Source of the DNA: a virus | Lineage: Duplodnaviria > Heunggongvirae > Uroviricota > Caudoviricetes | Reading direction: 5' to 3' (one strand) | Virus record (IMG/VR): IMGVR_UViG_2667527965_000001 | DNA: 10,116 nt | Shown here: in pieces, positions 1-10,116 of the stretch | Layout: every line of letters begins with the position of its first letter | How positions within the stretch are numbered: the first letter of the stretch is position 1 | The notes under the pieces: model-generated | Databases searched by the model: none | What the model was told of the DNA's origin: nothing | Seen by the model: only the letters and a program-made list of their open reading frames with translations | Position numbers and translations under genes: made by a program

Positions 1-77
1 AGCTGATAGAAACAGAAGCCACTGGAGCACCTCAAAAACACCATCATACACTAAATCAGTAAGTTGGCAGCATCACC
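1..77 (-). mobile_element. IS1 terminal fragment: left inverted repeat plus the first 77 bp, reverse orientation; the element continues leftward outside the window
   Basis: Positions 1-77 are the exact reverse complement of 10040-10116. The sequence read from 10040 (GGTGATGCTGCCAACTTACTGATTTAGTGTATGATGGTGTTTTTGAGGTGCTCCAGTGGCTTCTGTTTCTATCAGCT) matches the IS1 left end and the start of insA (GTG GCT TCT GTT TCT ATC AGC = MASVSIS) as I recall it. Confidence 0.85.
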
Positions 78-179
78 CAAAACATCAACTTTTTCCATAT
101 ACCTTGCTGTGAAGATGATGGGCATAGATGATGCGAACAACCAGAACGCAACAAACAAAAACTGCAATGCGTTTTTCAT
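51..179 (-). pseudogene. Small ORF truncated by IS1: 34 native codons (MKNALQFLFVAFWLFASSMPIIFTARYMEKVDVL, hydrophobic signal-peptide or TM-like N-terminus) fused to 8 IS1-derived codons (GDAANLLI, stop)
   Basis: ATG at 177-179 (minus strand) is preceded by GGAGG at 184-188. The reading frame crosses the IS1 boundary at 77/78 and stops inside IS1. It is absent from the ORF track because it is under the length cut-off. Confidence 0.3.
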
Positions 180-433
180 TATTCCTCCTACAATCAATGT
201 GCAATTACATTTAAACACACCTCAATTTGGCCGGACATATAAATATCTAAACCAGAAAAAATCACTTACATAGCGTTACAAACTCTTTAGTCTAAAGGTT
301 CATCGTAAAACATTCCCCATACTTATCAGTCCGTTCCGCGCCAGGTAGCTCATTGCCTTATCTGGCAACCTGTAATCAGGTTTCCGCTTTTTCAGTTGGC
401 TGGTCGTTTAACCGACATAGTTAATCCATTAAT

Positions 434-721
434 CTAGTTGCCGGATGTTGGTGGATTTTCGCGTTTTAGTTGTTCATAAAAGTGCACAGCTTTAACCAGT
501 TCTTCTGATGTAACTGGGACTGGTGAGGCAGTGAATAAGGCCTGAATTTGATAGTTCGGCCTGTCGTTACAATCCTCTTTTTTCGGTACATATTTCCAGT
601 CACCAGACCACTACTTCCCCTGAAAGTCCGTAACGCCTTTTTTCACGTAGCGATATCGCCATGCCACTGGTTTTGCTTGCCCCGCCGTTTCATGCCCTTC
701 CTGATAATTAATCTCGCTCAT
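434..721 (-). pseudogene. Candidate decayed gene: a 36-codon ORF (MSEINYQEGHETAGQAKPVAWRYRYVKKGVTDFQGK) followed in frame, after a single TAG at 611-613, by 58 more sense codons (WSGDWKYVPKKEDCNDRPNYQIQALFTASPVPVTSEELVKAVHFYEQLKRENPPTSGN)
   Basis: Hand translation of the minus strand. One in-frame amber codon separates two protein-like segments. No homolog recognised. Confidence 0.2.
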
Positions 722-958
722 TCATCGCCCCACTCATCACAATATGCTTCGACCGGAGTTTTTCCCGCTTCATAGTCATCACGCTAGGATTCGACATCAG
801 CAGCACTTCCACCGCGTAACTCACCATAGTCCATTAATAGTTCATCCCGCTCTTCAAAACTGATGTTATATTTAGCTGAACAAAAATCAGCCACTTTGTT
901 CTTCCTCATCGTCTTTTATTTCGTGGTATGAGTAATTGCAGTAGTTAAAGAAAATTTC

Positions 959-1069
959 TTATGCTCCGTCATGAATTTCCTCAGGTGTTGCGTCATCGTC
1001 CACTTCGAATACATCCTCAAAATCTCCACCAGCTATTCCCGTTTCAATAATAATTTTGAACTTTCGCAT
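959..1069 (-). CDS. Small acidic hypothetical protein, 36 aa (MRKFKIIIETGIAGGDFEDVFEVDDDATPEEIHDGA)
   Basis: ATG at 1067-1069 (minus strand), stop at 959-961. Upstream AGGAGG (1093-1098) is separated from the ATG by a GC hairpin (1077-1092) plus 7 nt, so the effective spacing is good only if the hairpin forms. Confidence 0.3.
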   Translation of the reverse strand: MRKFKIIIETGIAGGDFEDVFEVDDDATPEEIHDGA

Positions 1070-1076
1070 TTCACTA

Positions 1077-1092
1077 CCGCCCTTTCGGGCGG
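1077..1092. other. Perfect GC hairpin: CCGCCC, loop TTTC, GGGCGG (GNRA-type GAAA loop on the minus strand)
   Basis: Direct reading. There is no U-tract on either side, so it is not a canonical intrinsic terminator. It sits between a strong SD and the start codon of the 959-1069 ORF. Confidence 0.5.
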
Positions 1093-1331
1093 CCTCCTGA
1101 TGTTCTGAGGGTGCAGAAATCCATCCGGTTAAGGATTAAATTTTATTTACAGAACTGAATTTAATTATTCAGATATACGTATCTGTAGCCTTACGAATCT
1201 ACTCACTGGATGCCTCTTTCATAAAAATAATCCAGTGGGTTTTATCGTTTTTTCCCTGTTCGTTGACAGATAACAGGTTTTCTGTCTGTCAGTGCCAGAA
1301 TCTGGCTTACCGGTATTTGCGTTTCATTCCA

Positions 1332-1688
1332 TTAAAAAATCAGAACGCCGTGCGGCCTCAACACCCGAAAGGCTTCTTTAAATCTCTGTCGCGAATCATC
1401 ACGCCAGGCATCTTTATTCAGCCGTCCATATTTCTTTCCCATCCAGGCGTTATCACCAACACTCTCAAGATGCGGAGGGTCTAATACAACCATCGAAAAA
1501 GATGCGTCTGCAAATGATAATGCACGAAAATCTGCGATAATGTCAGGGCTGATAATCAAGCGTCTCCCATTGCGTAATGTGTATCCTTCTTTTCTGATAT
1601 CGCTGAATATCGCCCGTTCGTCAGACTTATCGAACCAGAACATGCGGCTGCCACAGCACATATCAAGAATGGTTGCCGGTGCACTCAC
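1332..1688 (-). CDS. DNA methyltransferase-like protein (SAM-dependent, probably N6-adenine type), short and possibly 3'-truncated
   Basis: The translation contains LDMCCGS (motif I-like) and VVLDPPH (DPPY/DPPH catalytic motif-like). The start ATG overlaps the stop of the upstream 140-aa ORF (ATGA). The TAA stop at 1332-1334 is followed by 29 more in-frame sense codons before the next stop at 1242-1244. Confidence 0.5.
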   Translation of the reverse strand: MSAPATILDMCCGSRMFWFDKSDERAIFSDIRKEGYTLRNGRRLIISPDIIADFRALSFADASFSMVVLDPPHLESVGDNAWMGKKYGRLNKDAWRDDSRQRFKEAFRVLRPHGVLIF

Positions 1689-2107
1689 TGCGCCACGTCC
1701 TGAAAATTACCCTGATAGAAAGCCAGTATGCGCTGCATAACTTCGCTCTTCCGGCACTCGCGACAGATTATGTTTAGGCGACTGTCGTAGCGACGTATTT
1801 CTCCGTCAGGTGATGACCAGATAAGGTCCGGATCAACCACAGCAGGTTTCTTCACCTTTGCCCTCGAGAGTTTTTTGCGGGCGTTTTGCCAGTCCTTACG
1901 CGCCTGTTCAGAGGGGAATAACCCGTAGCCGGAGTTGTATACATCGCCACTGGCTACCAGCTCTCTGGCAAGAACGCTCATCAGATATCTAGTCGCACCT
2001 GTTTTAGCTTCCAGTTGCCGTAACGTCTCACGGCCGCTCTGGCGCACGAGTTCCACCACCTGCCATTTAATTTTTTCCCGCTCTTCTTGTGTAAAAACTT
2101 TTGCCAC
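1685..2107 (-). CDS. Hypothetical phage protein, 140 aa, possibly with a winged-helix-like N-terminus
   Basis: GTG start at 2105-2107 is preceded by a GGGGG SD about 5 nt upstream. It lies downstream of the O-like gene and is translationally coupled to the methyltransferase-like ORF. No family recognised. Confidence 0.55.
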   Translation of the reverse strand: MAKVFTQEEREKIKWQVVELVRQSGRETLRQLEAKTGATRYLMSVLARELVASGDVYNSGYGLFPSEQARKDWQNARKKLSRAKVKKPAVVDPDLIWSSPDGEIRRYDSRLNIICRECRKSEVMQRILAFYQGNFQDVAQ

Positions 2108-2147
2108 AAGTCCCCCTTAAAATTACCTCATGACCTGAAATCAACAC

Positions 2148-3113
2148 TTATCCTCTGAAACCAGGCGGAATTTCTGTATCCGGTTCAGAAATATGATTAA
2201 CACAACGCTGTACAGGTGAACGTCCCAGGCGGATGACCAGTTCGTCCCATTTTTCGCGGAGCTTTGACGGGCTCATGATGTTTTTTACCCAGAATGGATC
2301 TCGCTGAACCCGACCAAACATTTCGCAAATTTGTCTGTGGCTTCTGCCATCCAGCATCCGCATTGTGCGCACGTCATTGGCCCAGGCAGTCCAGTTAGGC
2401 TCTTTTGGTCGCATGATCTCGCCATCATCACTGGCTGCCTGTTCGTAGAGACCCACGATCCGCCCCCAGATCCACTGCGCACACGCCAAATCCTCCCTGC
2501 TACCCCACTGGCGTTTTTTCGCACTAAACACAACCGCGTCGGAGTTCCGGGTTAAAAAATCCTGTTCAGTCGTCTGCGGGTCCGGTTGCGAAGCTTCCGG
2601 ACGAAAAGTGTTTTTATTCTCTGTAGTAATCTCTGTTGTATTCTCTGTAAGATCATCAGGCCATTTTGACCCGATGACATTGGGTCGTTTTGAACCAATG
2701 GAGCGTTTCATTTTGACCTCTTCCATCGTGTCATTTTGACCTGATGGAGCGGCGCATTTTGAACCGATGGATTCGCTCAATTTGCCACCATCTAAAAGCT
2801 CGCTCCCATAGTTGATCGTGTAGAAATTGGTCATATCGCGCTTTGATTTATTGAGCTTTTCACAACGCAAAAGCCCCAGCGTTTTCAGACTTGCAAACGC
2901 GCGCTTTAACGTTGACTCTGACCAGAATGGGAACTGTTCCAGCCATTGTTCCGTTGTGTTATAAATCCAGCGAACACCATCACATTCCATGCCGGAGTTG
3001 GTATCTCTCAACCAGTAGTGCAGTTGTTGCAAAACAATGGCTTCGTTTAAGCCAATTTTCATTGCCAGCTGCGTGTTTATAACCAGTGGGCGTTCAGCAA
3101 AAAGAAGGCTCAT
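2148..3113 (-). CDS. Replication initiator, lambda O-like (iteron-binding)
   Basis: It sits in the O position of the rightward-operon equivalent. Iterons are embedded in the coding sequence, which translates to a repeated IGSKRPNVIGSKWPD-like motif. The ORF track starts at TTG 3167; ATG at 3111-3113 (MSLLFAERP...) is the more plausible start and overlaps the upstream stop by about 20 nt. Confidence 0.65.
   Translation of the reverse strand: MSLLFAERPLVINTQLAMKIGLNEAIVLQQLHYWLRDTNSGMECDGVRWIYNTTEQWLEQFPFWSESTLKRAFASLKTLGLLRCEKLNKSKRDMTNFYTINYGSELLDGGKLSESIGSKCAAPSGQNDTMEEVKMKRSIGSKRPNVIGSKWPDDLTENTTEITTENKNTFRPEASQPDPQTTEQDFLTRNSDAVVFSAKKRQWGSREDLACAQWIWGRIVGLYEQAASDDGEIMRPKEPNWTAWANDVRTMRMLDGRSHRQICEMFGRVQRDPFWVKNIMSPSKLREKWDELVIRLGRSPVQRCVNHISEPDTEIPPGFRG
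2661..2790. repeat. Iteron array: about 6 direct repeats of CATTTTGA(C/A)C-N-GATGG with a 22-24 bp period; putative ori-lambda-like origin inside the O-like gene
   Basis: Repeat units start near 2662, 2686, 2708, 2732, 2755 and 2778. The flanking 2595-2660 is AT-rich with a repeated TCTCTGT motif. Confidence 0.7.
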
Positions 3114-3615
3114 AATTCCATCCAGCTTTTTGTTGGTATTGCTGTCGATACGCAAGTTTGAAAGCAATTGCTTTTTCTATAAGTTCGTCAGTTTCACGAT
3201 CCACTACGGCAGGATCAGCAAAAAGCAGTCCGGACTCCACCACATCGCCATATTCTTTGTTTAACCCGGCGATCATGCACGTGATGCTTTTTCCGTCAGT
3301 AATTTCACGATACAACCTGAAATCATTAATCCGGATAGCCTCCATAATTGCAGGCACTAGCGCCGTGAACTTTTCACGCTTATCCCTGGTGTCGATAGCC
3401 TTCCAGCGTTCAAATATCTTCACTCGATTAACGCCAAGCGCTCGCTGATCAATCGCGCCACCTTCATATGTGACACGCTGAACATCGATGTTCGGGCGCT
3501 CTTTCAAAGCCCAGAATGCTTCAGTGATTAATATCGTCGCCTGCTCCTGTGTCATTCCTGGGCGACATATCCAGGCATCCAGAGCCTCACGAGCCTGTTC
3601 AGGAGTGATTTTCAT
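3094..3615 (-). CDS. YdaT-like protein (cII-position protein of Rac/Qin-type prophages)
   Basis: 173-aa ORF immediately downstream of the Cro-like gene. The segment IFERWKAIDTRDKREKFTALVPAIMEAI resembles Rac YdaT as I recall it. Family assignment is from memory. Confidence 0.5.
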   Translation of the reverse strand: MKITPEQAREALDAWICRPGMTQEQATILITEAFWALKERPNIDVQRVTYEGGAIDQRALGVNRVKIFERWKAIDTRDKREKFTALVPAIMEAIRINDFRLYREITDGKSITCMIAGLNKEYGDVVESGLLFADPAVVDRETDELIEKAIAFKLAYRQQYQQKAGWNYEPSFC

Positions 3616-3826
3616 TGTTCAACCGCCCCGCCCGCTTCGTCTTACGATATTCATCATAAACTTTGGGATCATACTGAAGCTCCCCGCCAGATGCCTCCTG
3701 TAGACGCATCGCGCGACCTTCAGGAACCAGTATCCCCCAAGCAGCAACACTTGCCAGTCTCACCCCTGCGGCATTGGCAAGCTTTGTTTTGCTGCCAAAA
3801 AAAGTAATTGCGTCAACTTTAAGCAT
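3599..3826 (-). CDS. dicC: Cro-like HTH regulator DicC, 75 aa from the ATG at 3824-3826
   Basis: It is divergent from the DicA-like repressor, and is preceded by a GAGGGGG SD 5 nt upstream. Its size and position match dicC of Qin. The ORF track adds one TTG codon upstream. Confidence 0.65.
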   Translation of the reverse strand: MLKVDAITFFGSKTKLANAAGVRLASVAAWGILVPEGRAMRLQEASGGELQYDPKVYDEYRKTKRAGRLNNENHS

Positions 3827-3840
3827 CAAAGCCCCCTCTT

Positions 3841-3856
3841 GTTAGACTTTTCTAAC
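3841..3856. promoter_or_regulatory. Perfect palindromic operator GTTAGA-N4-TCTAAC in the dicC-dicA intergenic region
   Basis: Direct reading. An identical half-site palindrome recurs at 4352-4367, and a degenerate copy (ATTAGA-ATTA-CCTAAC) at 3890-3905 abuts the dicA start. Confidence 0.5.
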
Positions 3857-3884
3857 ATTATTGTGCGCGGGATACCTAAGTCAA
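3857..3884 (-). promoter_or_regulatory. Putative sigma70 promoter for dicC (leftward)
   Basis: On the minus strand: -35 TTGACT (plus 3879-3884), 16-bp spacer, -10 AATAAT (plus 3857-3862). The operator at 3841-3856 lies just downstream of the -10. Confidence 0.35.
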
Positions 3885-3906
3885 GAAAAATTAGAATTAC
3901 CTAACT

Positions 3907-4314
3907 ATGGATACAAGAACCCTAGGCCAGCGAGTTCTGGCGCGACGAAAAGAATTACGCTTAACACAACGAGAAGCTGCGCGCCTCGCTGGAGTTGCTC
4001 ACGTCACAATTTCACAATGGGAAAGAGACGAAACCCAGCCAGTCGGAAAACGATTGTTTGCTTTAGCGGATGCTCTGAAGTGCTCACCTACATGGCTAAT
4101 GTTTGGTGACGAAGACAAGGCACCAGTGCCTGCACAAGAACTTCATGTGGAAACAGAGCTAACTCCCAACCACAAAGAATTGATCGAATTATTCGATGCT
4201 CTTCCATCTTCCGAGCAGGAAGCCTTGCTGTCTGAAATGCGCGCAAGAGTAGAAAACTTCAACAAACTCTTCGAAGAAATGCTTAAAGCGCGTAAAAATA
4301 AATCAATAAAATAA
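3907..4314 (+). CDS. dicA: DicA-type HTH repressor (cI-like immunity repressor)
   Basis: 135-aa translation with HTH LTQREAARLAGVAHVTISQWERDETQP and C-terminal EMRARVENFNKLFEEMLKARK. It closely resembles E. coli Qin DicA as recalled, and is followed by ydfA, ydfB, ydfC, DicF and dicB in the known order. Confidence 0.85.
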   Translation: MDTRTLGQRVLARRKELRLTQREAARLAGVAHVTISQWERDETQPVGKRLFALADALKCSPTWLMFGDEDKAPVPAQELHVETELTPNHKELIELFDALPSSEQEALLSEMRARVENFNKLFEEMLKARKNKSIK

Positions 4315-4351
4315 CATTCTTTTCAAGTGATTAGTTGCGCCCACTCTTTTC

Positions 4352-4367
4352 GTTAGACCAATCTAAC
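4352..4367. promoter_or_regulatory. Second perfect GTTAGA-N4-TCTAAC operator, upstream of ydfA (dicB operon control region)
   Basis: Direct reading. A degenerate copy GTTAGG-TTAT-TCTAAA at 4388-4403 overlaps the candidate promoter. Confidence 0.5.
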
Positions 4368-4376
4368 AAAAAACAC

Positions 4377-4405
4377 TTGCCTATCATGTTAGGTTATTCT
4401 AAATT
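4377..4405 (+). promoter_or_regulatory. Putative dicB-operon promoter
   Basis: -35 TTGCCT (4377-4382), 17-bp spacer, -10 TAAATT (4400-4405). The match to consensus is weak; the call rests on its position between the operators and ydfA. Confidence 0.3.
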
Positions 4406-4482
4406 ACTTTCCATCAAGACACCGCACGGTGTTCTCAGCAAACAGTTCCGCTACCCCGGCGTTAAGGGGAAATGAGGTAAGC

Positions 4483-4638
4483 ATGGATACTATCGATCTT
4501 GGCAACAACGAATCTCTGGTGTACGGCGTGTTTCCAAACCAGGACGGCACGTTCACCGCAATGACGTATACCAAAAGCAAAACGTTTAAAACCGAAAATG
4601 GTGCCCGTCGCTGGCTGGAAAGAAACTCAGGTGAGTGA
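4483..4638 (+). CDS. ydfA: YdfA-like small protein, 51 aa (MDTIDLGNNESLVYGVFPNQDGTFTAMTYTKSKTFKTENGARRWLERNSGE)
   Basis: GAGGT SD 4-5 nt upstream of the ATG at 4483. Length and sequence match Qin YdfA as recalled. The ORF track begins 18 codons upstream at a non-ATG start. Confidence 0.8.
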   Translation: MDTIDLGNNESLVYGVFPNQDGTFTAMTYTKSKTFKTENGARRWLERNSGE

Positions 4639-4639
4639 T

Positions 4640-4768
4640 ATGGATTTCGACACAATCATGGAAAAGGCTTACGAAGAATACTTCGAAGGCCTTGCCGAAG
4701 GCGAAGAAGCTCTCAGCTTCAGTGAGTTTAAACACGCGCTTTCCAGTTCGGCAAAATCTAACGGCTGA
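4640..4768 (+). CDS. ydfB: YdfB-like small acidic protein, 42 aa (MDFDTIMEKAYEEYFEGLAEGEEALSFSEFKHALSSSAKSNG)
   Basis: ATG at 4640 lies 1 nt after the ydfA stop, with AGGTGAG upstream. It is not in the ORF track (under the length cut-off; the track shows an overlapping frame 4635-4844 instead). Matches Qin YdfB as recalled. Confidence 0.8.
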   Translation: MDFDTIMEKAYEEYFEGLAEGEEALSFSEFKHALSSSAKSNG

Positions 4769-4797
4769 TAAGCGAAACAGCACCGCGAGGAATCAGT

Positions 4798-5016
4798 ATG
4801 CAGAAACGAGAACCCGTCATCATCGCGCCAGACTATACCGATGATGAACTTTATGAGTGGATGCGCCAGAAAATTAATGCAGCGCAGGATCTGAAATGGG
4901 CTAATGAAGCCAGGGCTAAGCAGGCTGAAAATCTGTCCGCTCTGGAGCAGGATATCACCAATCTGGAAAAAGCAGCGGCATTAAGCATTGCCAGAATGAT
5001 TACATACCCGCGTTAG
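4798..5016 (+). CDS. ydfC: YdfC-like protein, 72 aa
   Basis: GAGGA SD 6 nt upstream. Its position after ydfB and its size match Qin YdfC. Confidence 0.8.
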   Translation: MQKREPVIIAPDYTDDELYEWMRQKINAAQDLKWANEARAKQAENLSALEQDITNLEKAAALSIARMITYPR

Positions 5017-5356
5017 TAGCTAATCAACAAAGCTAAGGTTAGTAATTAAGGAGTTCTCCACGGGTGAGGTGGAGTGCGTGCGCCGGACACGGGTGCGCAT
5101 CCGGAACTGACAGTTTACTGAAAGGATATTTCCCTGAAAAGTCAGACCATAACGCGAAAGCGCACGGCGAGGTAGCTGGTTCATAGATAGCCTGTCGTTA
5201 AATTTTCGTCGACCGTGCGCTTCCGGTTGTGGCAACCCGCGAAATGGCGCGGCGGTAAGTATGGCGGGGTTATTCCTTCCCCGTTGAGGACACCGGGTTG
5301 TCAGGTTGACCATACGCTTAAGTGACAACCCCGCTGCAACGCCCTCTGTTATCAAT

Positions 5357-5414
5357 TTTCTGGTGACGTTTGGCGGTATCAGTTTTACTCCGTGACTGCT
5401 CTGCCGCCCTTTTT
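5357..5414 (+). ncRNA. dicF: DicF small RNA (antisense inhibitor of ftsZ translation)
   Basis: TTTCTGGTGACGTTTGGCGGTATCAGTTTTACTCCGTGACTGCTCTGCCGCCCTTTTT matches the DicF sequence as recalled, including the GGCGG/CCGCC terminator stem and U-tract. It sits between ydfC and dicB as in the dicB operon. Confidence 0.8.
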
Positions 5415-5507
5415 AAAGTGAATTTTGTGATGTGGTGAATGCGGCTGAGCGCACGCGGAACAGTTAAAACCAAAAACAGTGTTATGGGTGGATTCTCTGT
5501 ATCCGGC

Positions 5508-5528
5508 GTTAATTGTTAACTGGTTAAC
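5508..5528. promoter_or_regulatory. Three direct GTTAA(T/C) repeats at 7-8 bp spacing, followed by a CCTGG-N5-CCAGG inverted repeat (5533-5547), just upstream of the dicB RBS
   Basis: Direct reading. The half-site resembles the GTTAGA operator half-site. No function is known to me. Confidence 0.25.
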
Positions 5529-5583
5529 GTCACCTGGAGGCACCAGGCACTGCATCACAAAATTCATTGTTGAGGACGCGATA

Positions 5584-5772
5584 ATGAAAACGTTATTACC
5601 AAACGTTAATACGTCTGAAGGTTGTTTTGAAATTGGTGTCACTATCAGTAACCCAGTATTTACTGAAGATGCCATTAACAAGAGAAAACAAGAACGGGAG
5701 CTATTAAATAAAATATGCATTGTTTCAATGCTGGCTCGTTTACGTCTGATGCCAAAAGGATGTGCACAATGA
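5584..5772 (+). CDS. dicB: DicB cell-division inhibitor, 62 aa
   Basis: MKTLLPNVNTSEGCFEIGVTISNPVFTEDAINKRKQERELLNKICIVSMLARLRLMPKGCAQ matches DicB as recalled. GAGGA SD 7 nt upstream. The ORF track begins at an upstream non-ATG codon. Confidence 0.85.
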   Translation: MKTLLPNVNTSEGCFEIGVTISNPVFTEDAINKRKQERELLNKICIVSMLARLRLMPKGCAQ

Positions 5773-5960
5773 ATTCAGCATTTGTGCTTGTTCTGACAGT
5801 TTTTCTTGTTTCCGGAGAGCCAGTTGATATTGCAGTCAGTGTTCACAGGACAATGCAGGAGTGTATGACTGCAGCAACCGAACAGAAAATTCCCGGTAAC
5901 TGTTACCCGGTCGATAAAGTTATTCACCAGGATAATATCGAAATCCCGGCAGGTCTTTAA
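5769..5960 (+). CDS. ydfD: YdfD-like small membrane/lysis protein, 63 aa
   Basis: ATG overlaps the dicB stop (ATGA). Hydrophobic N-terminus MNSAFVLVLTVFLVSGEPV. Position and size match Qin YdfD. Confidence 0.8.
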   Translation: MNSAFVLVLTVFLVSGEPVDIAVSVHRTMQECMTAATEQKIPGNCYPVDKVIHQDNIEIPAGL

Positions 5961-6052
5961 AACAGTTCCGTAATAAATATCCGGTTTCATTCTTATATGC
6001 CAGCAATGGCAGGGATTTGTTCATCCTTAAATCTGTCATGAGGTTAAAACAA

Positions 6053-8524
6053 ATGAGTAAAGTCTTTATTTGCGCCGCTATTCCTGACGAACTGGCAACA
6101 AGGGAAGAAGGCGCTGTGGCTGTAGCCACAGCCATTGAAGCTGGCGACGAACGCCGTGCTCGAGCAAAATTTCACTGGCAATTCCTGGAACATTATCCGG
6201 CTGCTCAGGACTGCGCTTATAAATTTATTGTCTGCGAGGATAAACCTGGCATACCCCGCCCTGCCCTCGATTCATGGGATGCTGAATATATGCAGGAAAA
6301 CCGCTGGGATGAGGAGTCTGCTTCTTTTGTCCCGGTTGAGACTGAATCCGATCCGATGAACGTCACTTTTGACAAGCTGGCCCCTGAAGTACAGAACGCT
6401 GTCATGGTTAAGTTCGACACATGTGAAAACATCACCGTTGATATGGTTATTAGCGCACAGGAATTGTTGCAGGAAGACATGGCAACATTCGACGGACATA
6501 TCGTTGAAGCGTTGATGAAAATGCCAGAAGTTAACGCCATGTATCCGGAGCTTAAGTTGCACGCCATTGGGTGGGTTAAGCATAAATGTATTCCTGGTGC
6601 TAAATGGCCCGAAATTCAGGCAGAGATGCGCATCTGGAAAAAACGTCGCGAAGGTGAACGCAAGGAAACCGGAAAATACACGTCTGTTGTTGATCTCGCC
6701 CGCGCCAGAGCCAATCAACAGTACACTGAAAATTCAACAGGAAAAATCAGCCCGGTCATTGCTGCCATTCATCGCGAATACAAGCAGACATGGAAAACAC
6801 TGGATGACGAACTGGCCTACGCTCTCTGGCCTAGTGATGTGGATGCCGGAAACATTGACGGCAGCATCCATCGCTGGGCAAAAAAAGAAGTTATCGACAA
6901 CGACCGCGAAGACTGGAAGCGTATCTCGGCATCAATGCGCAAACAGCCTGATGCCCTTCGCTACGACCGCCAAACTATTTTTGGCCTTGTCCGTGAGCGT
7001 CCGATCGACATTCACAAAGATCCCGTAGCACTGAACAAATATATCTGCGAATACCTGACGACAAAGGGCGTGTTTGAGAATGAAGAAACAGACCTGGGCA
7101 CTGTTGATGTTCTCCAGTCATCAGAAACACAAACTGATGCAGTGGAAACTGAGGTATCTGATATCCCAAAAAATGAAACCGCGCCGGAAGCTGAACCATC
7201 TGTAGAGCGTGAGGGGCCGTTCTATTTCCTCTTCGCAGATAAGGACGGAGAAAAATACGGTCGCGCAAACAAACTCTCTGGTCTGGATAAGGCACTGGCT
7301 GCTGGCGCCACTGAAATCACAAAAGAAGAATATTTTGCCCGAAAAAATGGCACATACACGGGCTTACCGCAAAATGTAGATACCGCTGAAGATTCAGAAC
7401 AACCAGAGCCGATAAAAGTTACCGCTGACGAAGTAAACAAAATTATGCAGGCAGCCAATATCAGCCAGCCTGACGCCGATAAGTTGCTTGCTGCATCACG
7501 TGGTGAATTTGTTGAAGGGATTAGTGACCCGAATGATCCGAAATGGGTTAAGGGGCTCCAGACCCGCGATTCTGTGAACCAGAACCAGCATGAATCGGAA
7601 CGGAACTACCAAAAAGCGGAACAAAACAGTCCAAATGCGTTACAAAACGAGCCAGAAACGAAACAGCCTGAACCAGTAGCGCAACAGGAAGTGGAAAAAG
7701 TCTGCACCGCCTGCGGTCAGACCGGCGGCGGCAACTGCCCTGATTGTGGCGCGGTGATGGGCGACGCAACATACCAAGAAACATTCGATGAAGAGTATCA
7801 GGTTGAAGTTCAGGAAGATGATCCGGAGGAAATGGAAGGCGCTGAACATCCACACAAGGAGAACACTGGCGGCAATCAGCATCACAATAGCGATAATGAA
7901 ACTGGCGAGACGGCAGATCACCCAATTAAGGTGAACGGTCATCACGAAATCACATCCACCAGCAGGACGTGTGACCATCTAATGATCGACCTTGAAACCA
8001 TGGGAAAAAATCCTGATGCCCCGATCATCTCAATAGGTGCAATATTTTTCGATCCGCAAACCGGAGATATGGGACCGGAATTTAGTAAGACTATCGATCT
8101 GGAAACTGCTGGCGGAGTCATTGATCGGGACACCATTAAATGGTGGCTTAAGCAATCACGCGAAGCGCAATCTGCCATTATGACCGATGAAATCCCGTTA
8201 GATGATGCACTGTTACAATTGCGAGAATTTATCGACGAAAACTCCGGTGAATTTTTTGTTCAGGTTTGGGGAAATGGAGCCAACTTCGACAACACGATTT
8301 TGCGCCGTTCATACGAACGGCAGGGGATCCCCTGCCCGTGGCGTTACTACAACGATCGCGATGTACGCACAATCGTTGAGCTGGGGAAAGCCATAGACTT
8401 CGATGCCAGAACGGCTATTCCATTCGAAGGTGAGCGCCATAATGCACTTGATGACGCCCGTTACCAGGCAAAATACGTTTCAGTTATCTGGCAAAAACTG
8501 ATCCCGAGTCAGGCTGATTCTTAA
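6053..8524 (+). CDS. RecE-family (exodeoxyribonuclease VIII-annotated type) multidomain protein: RecE-like central region, acidic linker, CxxC-N8-CxxC zinc ribbon, His-rich segment, C-terminal DEDDh 3'-5' exonuclease domain
   Basis: The central segment DADKLLAASRGEFVEGISDPNDPKWVKGLQTRD matches a segment of Rac RecE as I recall it. The C-terminus carries DnaQ-like motifs MIDLETMG (Exo I), WGNGANFDNTIL (Exo II) and HNALDDARYQA (Exo III). GAGGT SD 8 nt upstream of the ATG at 6053; the ORF track starts at TTG 6017. Confidence 0.8.
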   Translation: MSKVFICAAIPDELATREEGAVAVATAIEAGDERRARAKFHWQFLEHYPAAQDCAYKFIVCEDKPGIPRPALDSWDAEYMQENRWDEESASFVPVETESDPMNVTFDKLAPEVQNAVMVKFDTCENITVDMVISAQELLQEDMATFDGHIVEALMKMPEVNAMYPELKLHAIGWVKHKCIPGAKWPEIQAEMRIWKKRREGERKETGKYTSVVDLARARANQQYTENSTGKISPVIAAIHREYKQTWKTLDDELAYALWPSDVDAGNIDGSIHRWAKKEVIDNDREDWKRISASMRKQPDALRYDRQTIFGLVRERPIDIHKDPVALNKYICEYLTTKGVFENEETDLGTVDVLQSSETQTDAVETEVSDIPKNETAPEAEPSVEREGPFYFLFADKDGEKYGRANKLSGLDKALAAGATEITKEEYFARKNGTYTGLPQNVDTAEDSEQPEPIKVTADEVNKIMQAANISQPDADKLLAASRGEFVEGISDPNDPKWVKGLQTRDSVNQNQHESERNYQKAEQNSPNALQNEPETKQPEPVAQQEVEKVCTACGQTGGGNCPDCGAVMGDATYQETFDEEYQVEVQEDDPEEMEGAEHPHKENTGGNQHHNSDNETGETADHPIKVNGHHEITSTSRTCDHLMIDLETMGKNPDAPIISIGAIFFDPQTGDMGPEFSKTIDLETAGGVIDRDTIKWWLKQSREAQSAIMTDEIPLDDALLQLREFIDENSGEFFVQVWGNGANFDNTILRRSYERQGIPCPWRYYNDRDVRTIVELGKAIDFDARTAIPFEGERHNALDDARYQAKYVSVIWQKLIPSQADS

Positions 8525-8535
8525 TGTTCAACTGT

Positions 8536-8567
8536 CGCCGGTTGTGACTGGTATTCTGCAACCGGCG
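8536..8567 (+). other. 9-bp GC-rich hairpin (CGCCGGTTG, 14-nt loop, CAACCGGCG) between the exonuclease gene and xis
   Basis: Direct reading. No U-tract follows, so it is not a canonical intrinsic terminator; it may be an attenuator or processing site. Confidence 0.3.
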
Positions 8568-8596
8568 CTCGTCTGATGTAAGAGATAAAGAAATCG

Positions 8597-8848
8597 ATGA
8601 GCGAAGTAATCATGATTGTCTCTCCCGGCAAATGGGTATCCGAAGAGCAGTTAATTGCGCTGAAAGGAATAAAAAAAGGTACGTTAAAAAAGGCCCGGGA
8701 AAAATCGTTTATGGAAGGAAGGGAATATAAGCATGTCGCTCATGACGGTATGCCATGGGATAACAGTCCATGCTTTTACAACCTGGAAGAAATTGATCGC
8801 TGGATTGAGCGCCAGGCATCAGCGAGACCAAGACGTCATCTTACTTGA
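8597..8848 (+). CDS. Excisionase (Xis-like)
   Basis: 83-aa ORF immediately upstream of the integrase. It contains a GREY motif reminiscent of lambda Xis (DGREYLF). Confidence 0.6.
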   Translation: MSEVIMIVSPGKWVSEEQLIALKGIKKGTLKKAREKSFMEGREYKHVAHDGMPWDNSPCFYNLEEIDRWIERQASARPRRHLT

Positions 8849-8882
8849 CTAAAAGCCACACTAACTAATGAGAGAAGTTGAA

Positions 8883-10061
8883 ATGAAATATCCGACAGGC
8901 GTGGAAAACCATGGAGGGAAATTACGTATCTGGTTTGTTTATAAAGACGTAAGAGTCAGGGAAAATCTGGGGGTTCCTGACACAGCAAAAAACAGGCGCG
9001 TTGCAGGTGAACTACGCTCCTCTGTTTGTTACGCAATAAAAACTGGTGTTTTCGACTATGCAAAACAGTTTCCCTCCTCACGCAATCTGGAAAAATTTGG
9101 TGAGGCCCGACAAGATTTAACCATAAAAGAACTGGCTGAAAAATTTCTGGCACTGAAAGAAACTGAAGTCGCCAAAACATCACTCAACACATACCGTGCC
9201 GTCATCAAAAATATCCTGAGCATAATCGGTGAAAAAAATCTTGCCTCATCGATTAATAAAGAAAAATTACTGGAGGTTCGTAAAGAGTTACTGACTGGAT
9301 ACCAGATCCCCAAAAGTAACTATATTGTTACACAACCAGGGAGATCGGCTGTAACTGTAAATAATTACATGACAAATCTTAACGCCGTGTTCCAGTTTGG
9401 TGTTGATAACGGTTACCTGGCAGATAATCCGTTTAAGGGGATCTCGCCATTAAAGGAATCAAGAACCATTCCGGATCCTCTTTCGCGGGAAGAATTTATC
9501 CGTCTTATCGATGCGTGCAGAAATCAGCAAGCAAAAAATTTATGGTGTGTTTCTGTTTATACTGGAGTTCGCCCTGGTGAGCTGTGTGCACTTGGATGGG
9601 AGGACATAGATCTGAAAAATGGAACAATGATGATCAGGAGAAATTTAGCAAAAGACCGTTTCACGGTACCAAAAACACAGGCGGGAACCAATCGGGTCAT
9701 TCATCTTATTAAGCCAGCAATCGACGCTCTCCGGAGTCAGATGACATTAACGAGACTGAGCAAAGAGCATATCATTGATGTTCACCTCAGAGAGTATGGC
9801 AGAACAGAAAAACAAAAATGCACCTTTGTTTTTCAACCTGAAGTGTCAGCGAGAGTAAAAAATTATGGTGACCATTTTACCGTTGACTCAATAAGGCAGA
9901 TGTGGGACGCAGCGATAAAACGTGCCGGACTCCGCCATCGAAAATCATATCAGTCGAGACATACTTATGCCTGCTGGTCGCTGACAGCTGGTGCTAACCC
10001 GGCATTTATAGCAAACCAGATGGGCCATGCAGATGCGCAGGTGATGCTGCCAACTTACTGA
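8883..10061 (+). CDS. Lambda-family tyrosine integrase, C-terminally disrupted by IS1 (the last 7 codons and the stop are IS1-derived); probably inactive
   Basis: Arm-binding-type N-terminus (KYPTGVENHGGKLRIWFVYKDVRV), then catalytic-core boxes (RPGELCALGWEDIDL ... RHTYACWSLTAGANPAFIANQMGHADAQ). The frame enters the IS1 inverted repeat at 10040 and ends VMLPTY-stop. ATG 8883 has the better SD; the ORF track starts at 8868. Confidence 0.8.
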   Translation: MKYPTGVENHGGKLRIWFVYKDVRVRENLGVPDTAKNRRVAGELRSSVCYAIKTGVFDYAKQFPSSRNLEKFGEARQDLTIKELAEKFLALKETEVAKTSLNTYRAVIKNILSIIGEKNLASSINKEKLLEVRKELLTGYQIPKSNYIVTQPGRSAVTVNNYMTNLNAVFQFGVDNGYLADNPFKGISPLKESRTIPDPLSREEFIRLIDACRNQQAKNLWCVSVYTGVRPGELCALGWEDIDLKNGTMMIRRNLAKDRFTVPKTQAGTNRVIHLIKPAIDALRSQMTLTRLSKEHIIDVHLREYGRTEKQKCTFVFQPEVSARVKNYGDHFTVDSIRQMWDAAIKRAGLRHRKSYQSRHTYACWSLTAGANPAFIANQMGHADAQVMLPTY

Positions 10062-10116
10062 TTTAGTGTATGATGGTGTTTTTGAGGTGCTCCAGTGGCT
10101 TCTGTTTCTATCAGCT

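Follow-up and report, generated by a model that had tools for sequence, protein, structure and literature searches.

Does a Qin-type prophage whose integrase gene runs into an insertion sequence still encode a working recombinase, or has it lost the means of leaving the chromosome? The question is raised by the window analysed here, a stretch of 10,116 bases which is the entire draft E. coli contig LIVC01000090.1 (assembly GCA_001419925.1), and whose integrase is deposited in GenBank as KQJ02501.1, a product of 392 aa labelled 'integrase [Escherichia coli]'. The genes called in the window and their Pfam assignments are DUF977, a 321-aa hypothetical protein, YdaT, a Cro/DicC-like protein, an HTH_3 DicA-like repressor, ydfA (DUF1391), dicB, ydfD (DUF1482), an 823-aa YdfE exonuclease, a DUF1233 excisionase and the integrase. 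The features of the prophage needed below are:

3599-3826, minus strand: dicC-like gene
3907-4314, plus strand: dicA-like gene
5358-5409: DicF small RNA (Rfam RF00039, 76.7 bits), in its expected place upstream of dicB
5584-5772: dicB
6053-8524: ydfE-type gene, full length (823 aa)
8597-8848, plus strand: intact xis, directly upstream of int (Pfam PF06806, putative excisionase, 108 bits)

According to this Pfam and Rfam content and to collinearity, the gene order is that of Qin, dicC-dicA-ydfA-ydfB-ydfC-dicF-dicB-ydfD-ydfE-(xis)-intQ. With the exception of a divergent immunity segment, positions 78-10039 run collinear to their counterpart in the Qin-like prophage of E. coli ATCC 8739 at 98.8-99.8% identity, and the gene order is also collinear with the K-12 cryptic prophage Qin, so that the Qin-type assignment proposed for this integrase in the initial annotation holds. 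In ATCC 8739 the CDS collinear with xis encodes the excisionase family protein WP_000005552.1, with the same length and the same position relative to int. The integrase has the two attributes of the heterobivalent lambda-type enzymes, an arm-binding domain (PF12167, 78.6 bits, aa 4-67), which the protein of the window retains, and an adjacent xis. In the collinear complete genomes examined int is adjoined by rspB, a flank that in the window lies past the contig end.

Other traits of this prophage were observed along the way. The 823-aa YdfE-type protein combines YdfE_N, YdfE_C and a C-terminal Rv2179c-like 3'-5' exoribonuclease domain. The immunity segment (3737-4234) is an allele unlike those of K-12 and ATCC 8739, its flanks being 99-100% identical; the DicA-like repressor shares only 76 of 135 residues with K-12 DicA and the DicC-like protein 66 of 76, with the differences clustered at the N-terminus. 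From this divergence, the Qin prophage of the window could be a hetero-immune variant. Moreover, approximately positions 300-1200 are 99.8% identical to a stretch of ATCC 8739 that contains a RefSeq DUF7167 pseudogene (with an internal stop) and a frameshifted hypothetical gene. Judged from these pseudogenes, the prophage was evidently cryptic before IS1 inserted; the insertion would cost it the capacity to be lost by excision, not the status of a viable phage.

The integrase frame and IS1 meet within codon 386, and the junction is made up of the following parts:

8883-10061, plus strand: hybrid integrase open reading frame, from the ATG at 8883 to the stop TGA at 10059-10061
8883..10039, plus strand: native part of the Qin-type integrase gene, codons 1-385 and two bases of codon 386
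10040..10116, plus strand: IS1 left (IRL) end, first 77 nt, with the terminal inverted repeat at about 10040-10062 and the insA GTG start at 10095; the contig ends here
10041..10061, plus strand: IS1-encoded C-terminus, V387 M L P T Y392 at 10041-10058 (Tyr codon TAC 10056-10058), then TGA 10059-10061

The program-made ORF list begins this frame at an upstream ATG (8868), and 8883 was taken as the gene start. When 5426 complete E. coli genomes were searched by megablast, positions 8868-10039 showed 100% DNA identity to the intact alleles of many of them, and the identity ended exactly there. Codon 380 (ATG) begins at 10020, His382 occupies 10026-10028 and 10039 is the last native base; the first IS1 base (G) turns codon 386 into CAG, the native codon being CAA, and Gln is kept. 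The translation then ends as ...ANQMGH382ADAQ386-VMLPTY392-stop, with the VMLPTY codons and the stop all contained in the 23-bp IS1 terminal repeat. The IS1 part opens at 10040 with GGTGATGCTGCCAACTTACTGA... (in a longer read-out of the same bases, GGTGATGCTGCCAACTTACTGATTTAG...) and it is identical in 77 of 77 nt to the left end of the IS1A copy of E. coli VG12A2 (L005 3704-3780), in which the RefSeq transposase CDS starts 55 nt in, that is, at the GTG found at 10095 in the window. The piece has, in this way, both the terminal inverted repeat of IS1 and a left-end sequence with the insA start. A query containing it matched tens of thousands of places in E. coli genomes, and therefore the identity to IS1 is not due to chance.

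The junction between int and IS1 is real. It is also present in a second assembly, from run ERR12409523 (L004), which is 100% identical over 7349 nt, and its presence in this independent assembly makes an artefact of a single pipeline unlikely; the two assemblies probably represent the same clone. The junction was found in none of the 5426 complete E. coli genomes searched by megablast, and an exact scan for the left junction gave no matches in GTDB species representatives or JGI metagenomes.

What the gene has lost can be read from the intact allele of ATCC 8739, which shows 100% identity up to 10039 and in which ADAQ386 is followed by MVFQVY392-GKWM...EAMKN-stop, giving 426 aa in total (the native continuation from ADAQ being MVFQVY392 GKWMSENNNAQVALLNTQLSEYAPTMPHNEAMKN). 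The last 40 codons (387-426) are missing from the window integrase, which amounts to the MVFQVY392 segment plus a tail of 34 residues. The initial annotation had placed the end of the integrase frame inside IS1, and its coordinates and translation were correct; the alignment to the ATCC 8739 allele also bears out that the native C-terminus was exchanged for an IS1-coded VMLPTY-stop with no tail, and it sharpens the description of the IS1-supplied Tyr, said to stand at about the right spacing, to the exact native position, residue 392. The annotation had further considered that full-length homologs might end naturally at this point, and they do not. A total of 134 related sequences were collected, and the QMGH...Y motif is present in 122 of them, homologs of at least 60% identity; in 121 of these M-[VLI]-[FY]-x-V-Y is followed by a tail of 32-42 aa, the protein of the window being the sole exception. 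The other 121 homologs all have M387 and V391, and Pro never occurs at position 390. In the tail, G393, W395, M396, Q403, L407, L411, P416 and P419 are at least 90% conserved in alignment A1, which comprises 30 homologs down to 60% identity.

The isolated temperate phages PhiR42_1, HannyBb, mEp460_ev081 and Tritos have the full 426-aa form at 98.8-99.8% identity. Together with the intact Qin-like allele WP_000876960.1, the integrases of mEp460, Tritos, HannyBb and PhiR42_1 are 98.8-100% identical to the window protein over residues 1-386 and share its arm-binding and catalytic domain architecture, but they have 426 aa, with MVFQVY392 and the 34-aa tail, whereas the window protein has 392 aa and ends in VMLPTY. 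Furthermore, of the 2970 complete E. coli genomes with the 3' 300 nt of the gene, 2955 have this region without interruption.

The remaining catalytic residues all lie upstream of the junction:

9570-9572, plus strand: R230
9672-9674, plus strand: K264
9957-9962, plus strand: R359/H360
10026-10028, plus strand: H382

The hybrid has in consequence the catalytic Arg-I, Lys, Arg-II and His/Trp-III residues of a tyrosine recombinase, and R230, K264, R359, H360 and H382 are, like Y392, invariant in the 30 homologs of A1. The PF00589 catalytic-domain profile matches the native protein over residues 201-392 (66.2 bits); its match to the hybrid is still significant (59.7 bits, the gathering score being 27.1) and covers residues 201-386, ending at Q386, the last native residue. 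What the hybrid lacks is the native nucleophile Tyr in its conserved segment, and the C-terminal segment after it. The closest solved relative, according to a phmmer search of PDB sequences, is the Tn1549 integrase, which is only distantly related to the window integrase (E = 4e-9). Tn1549 Int has the corresponding residues at the positions aligned with R230, K264, R359/H360 and H382, and the alignment of MGHADAQMVFQVYGKW with MGHSNITMTLNYYAHA sets Y392 opposite Y380. In a PDB profile search, lambda Int, XerD and XerH were matched over the Arg-I region only. Native Y392 is assigned as the nucleophile on the basis of its invariance in A1, its alignment to Tn1549 Y380, the published work on that enzyme (PMC5871717) and the extent of the PF00589 match. 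An AlphaFold2 model of the native 426-aa integrase, built from the 30-sequence alignment, had a mean pLDDT of 58.8 and lends no structural support, since values under 50 were obtained for most of the catalytic domain. It was also noticed that this integrase family has an invariant Tyr, Y356 (in YQSRH), three residues before the Arg-II residue R359, near 9948-9962, at a place where Tn1549 Int has His (tpHamRH).

We propose that IS1 transposed into codon 386 of the int gene of a Qin-type lambdoid prophage, six codons upstream of Tyr392, and that the gene has since then encoded native residues 1-386, the six terminal-repeat residues VMLPTY and a stop. The predicted product keeps the arm-binding domain, the core-binding domain, R230, K264, R359 and H382, and has lost MVFQVY392 and the 34-residue tail. 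The segment after the tyrosine, which is swapped between protomers in solved tyrosine-recombinase complexes, couples the protomers there, and with this segment missing the hybrid would probably bind its DNA sites without coordinated strand exchange; Int/Xis-dependent excision would be abolished or greatly reduced and the prophage 'grounded'. In Tn1549 Int, Y380 is required for strand exchange and for excision in vivo, and the subunits exchange the helix that follows the Tyr, a feature also noted for Cre, XerH and lambda Int (PMC5871717). The truncated form 381C of this enzyme, which ends one residue past the Tyr, retains DNA cleavage, with strand exchange greatly reduced, and the forms 384C and 390C, from which 13 or 7 residues were removed, are hyperactive (PMC5871717). 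Like the window protein, the engineered truncations 381C, 384C and 390C, and W350ter of lambda Int as well, lose the protomer-exchanged segment after the nucleophile, but they keep the native residues up to the Tyr, whereas in the hybrid the five preceding residues are foreign and nothing follows. Because these five residues are foreign as well, the window protein can be viewed as a more severe 381C. The phenotype to be expected of it is one in which DNA binding, and possibly cleavage, are retained and strand exchange and recombination are impaired. From the conservation of the lost residues and the truncation data (PMC5871717), the most likely outcome is a loss of recombination and excision, and we hold with good confidence that the insertion of IS1 into codon 386 leaves a recombination-defective hybrid and a grounded prophage; the view of the initial annotation that the prophage is most likely locked in place is accordingly a reasonable one. 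Excision could still be possible if Int were supplied in trans by another prophage whose integrase has the same specificity.

The presence of a Tyr at the native position deserves consideration in itself. When the first base of the IS1 left end falls at codon position 3, it reads x-V-M-L-P-T-Y-stop. In the two remaining phases the outcome is GDAANLLI-stop or a stop codon straight away. For the right end, whose frame was read by eye, phase 3 yields V-M-T-P-T-Y-stop, and accordingly every phase-3 insertion of IS1, in either orientation, ends the interrupted protein in PTY-stop. In a gene of 1281 nt such as this one, a Tyr at 392 would be expected from about 1 in 1280 IS1 insertions at random sites. 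A selective origin of Tyr392 was considered and discarded as unneeded in view of this frequency, of the many sequenced E. coli genomes and of the single clone observed; chance is an adequate explanation, with Tyr392 as a by-product of the IS1 end sequence.

The same Tyr could nonetheless have a function, and it is here that the loss-of-function reading has to face an alternative, namely that IS1 restores the nucleophile at 392 and that the hybrid is still catalytically active, with cleavage or topoisomerase-like nicking and perhaps a low-level or deregulated recombination, so that the prophage would not be fully locked. The tyrosine is indeed at the identical position and the upstream catalytic residues are all intact, and three of the five substitutions exchange one hydrophobic residue for another (M to V, V to M and F to L). 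The lambda Int mutant W350ter is said to show enhanced cleavage and topoisomerase activity while being recombination-defective, the papers on C-terminal truncations of lambda Int reportedly being those of Tekle 2002 and Kazmierczak 2002. In Tn1549 Int, 381C still forms the covalent cleavage product and, as mentioned, longer forms are hyperactive (PMC5871717). However, all five residues between Q386 and Y392 are unlike those of the 121 homologs, including the invariant M387 and V391, a Pro stands two residues before the Tyr and nothing comes after it, the PF00589 profile stops short of the IS1-coded residues, and 381C itself is poor in strand exchange. In addition, the hybrid allele was seen in just two assemblies, whose DNA is 100% identical, and not once among the 5426 complete genomes, which gives no sign of selection. 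We therefore regard an active hybrid as improbable, and it is a little less probable still that the terminal repeat rebuilds a working nucleophile in such a way that the 392-aa protein would be cleavage-proficient but strand-exchange-deficient, or deregulated. If this were true, the hybrid could nick or relax att DNA, be dominant-negative against incoming phages with the same integrase specificity, or allow rare excision.

The other alternatives concern the origin of the junction and not the activity of the protein, and they arise from the other end of the contig, where there is one further feature:

1..77, minus strand: left end of a second IS1, the exact reverse complement of 10040-10116

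The Qin early region at 78-10039 (9962 bp, with the immunity genes, dicBF, ydfE, xis and the interrupted int) is thus bracketed by inverted IS1 copies with their IRL ends inward, an arrangement that resembles a composite transposon and is also a signature of IS1-mediated inversion. On either side the contig reaches only 77 nt into IS1, leaving the far junction, the int 3' remnant and the att site outside it. Inverted IRL ends on both sides are the layout expected from intramolecular replicative IS1 transposition, and with the far junction outside the contig the int-IS1 boundary might mark the edge of a rearrangement brought about by IS1, either through intramolecular transposition (giving an inversion or a deletion) or through IS1-IS1 recombination, and the int 3' remnant and att would then have been displaced or lost; if so, this alone would block excision. 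We consider such an event unlikely. Two independent insertions give the same layout one time in four, and there is collinearity with ATCC 8739 over the interior, 78-10039. IS1 has also used the left site (77|78) independently: MB57 has an IS1 (L008 12257-13024) at the same 9-bp target, CAAAACATC, in the opposite orientation to the left IS1 of the window, and its int is intact. Likewise, the int gene of VG12A2 carries, 11 codons further downstream, an IS1 that arrived by simple insertion and is accompanied by an 8-bp duplication of its target, AATGGATG. These observations in MB57 and VG12A2 favour two independent insertions over an inversion, although the contig alone cannot decide between them. 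A simple insertion would be laid out as int, 768 bp of IS1, AGATGCGCA-AATGGTATTTCAGG... and rspB, and its right junction was expected to join the IS1 IRR, the target duplication and the int remnant as GGAGTCATTACC + (A)GATGCGCA + AATGGTATTTCAGG; an exact scan of GTDB species representatives and JGI metagenomes gave no matches to this right junction. Much less credible is an assembly chimera, produced by the collapse of short-read contigs at a multi-copy IS1. The contig does end exactly 77 nt into IS1 on both sides, as it would at a graph break with k=77, but genuine junctions normally leave contig ends of this kind, reaching one k-mer length into a repeat; the break between native sequence and IS1 is clean, falling at the first IS1 base, and the junction recurs in the separately assembled ERR12409523.

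Regarding the left site, shared ancestry of its IS1 with that of MB57 was rejected on account of the opposite orientations, and 77|78 looks like an IS1 hot spot. The element there cuts a small unannotated ORF on the minus strand, whose ATCC 8739 version has 59 aa (L006 14773-14952; MKNALQFLFVAFWLFASCMPIIFTARYMEKVDVLILIFGYINALFLGVFMAVMCIEYWR).

Returning to two independent insertions and a recombination-defective hybrid as our preferred reading, the allele can be compared with other defective integrases of this family. The Qin prophage of K-12 carries intQ, a pseudogene of the same gene family, in the same prophage type and in the same neighbourhood (dicC, dicA, ydfABC, dicF, dicB, ydfD, ydfE and int), and in both cases a prophage is left with a defective integrase. 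In K-12, however, an IS2E remnant with a deletion has cost ydfE its 3' part and intQ its N-terminus and has eliminated xis altogether, and the C-terminus of intQ is intact; only a truncated ydfE pseudogene is kept beside the IS2E remnant. In the window ydfE (823 aa), xis and 386 int codons are intact and only the C-terminus is replaced, by IS1. No excision could be detected for K-12 Qin, with its inactive intQ (PMC3105296), and intQ is mutated in most Qin prophages surveyed (PMC6379469). Another comparison is offered by the int::IS1 allele of VG12A2 (NZ_CP128592.1), an independent IS1 in the same orientation and in the C-terminal coding region of the same int. There the element (L005 3704-4471) follows ...YGKWM396, so that the native Tyr392 is kept, both junctions are visible, and RefSeq labels the gene a pseudogene.

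Other IS1 copies and other decayed forms of this integrase were encountered in public sequences. In several further complete genomes an IS1 lies in rspB or not more than a few hundred bases downstream of this int (matches H1-H19). Among proteins of public assemblies (P0002, P0003, P0004, P0006 and P0031) there are 555-aa fusions of the YdfE N-terminus to Int, in which a deletion took most of ydfE, xis and the start of int, an integrase that passes, after residue ~336, into a fragment of a Tn3-family transposase, one that changes frame after ...AGAN372, and one in which a deletion joins residue ~256 to att-proximal intergenic sequence.

Finally, with regard to what this allele means, both of its partners are, by sequence, known elements at 100% identity, a Qin/mEp460-type integrase and IS1A, and the event is an ordinary one, as there is ample documentation both of insertion sequences inactivating prophage integrases and, in particular, of Qin being grounded. 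The hybrid gene should be considered a disrupted integrase gene and not an integrase; it retains the architecture and four catalytic residues, and the nucleophile segment and the C-terminus are gone. For annotation, this implies that the 'integrase' KQJ02501.1 is a truncated IS1 fusion that ought to carry a pseudogene label, such as RefSeq gives to the analogous allele of VG12A2. That a Tyr is restored at exactly the nucleophile position is a curiosity, and it provides a natural construct for probing the segment around and after the catalytic tyrosine in this integrase family. The significance is small: the insertion of IS1 into int would add one more to the documented ways of fixing a Qin-type prophage in the chromosome.
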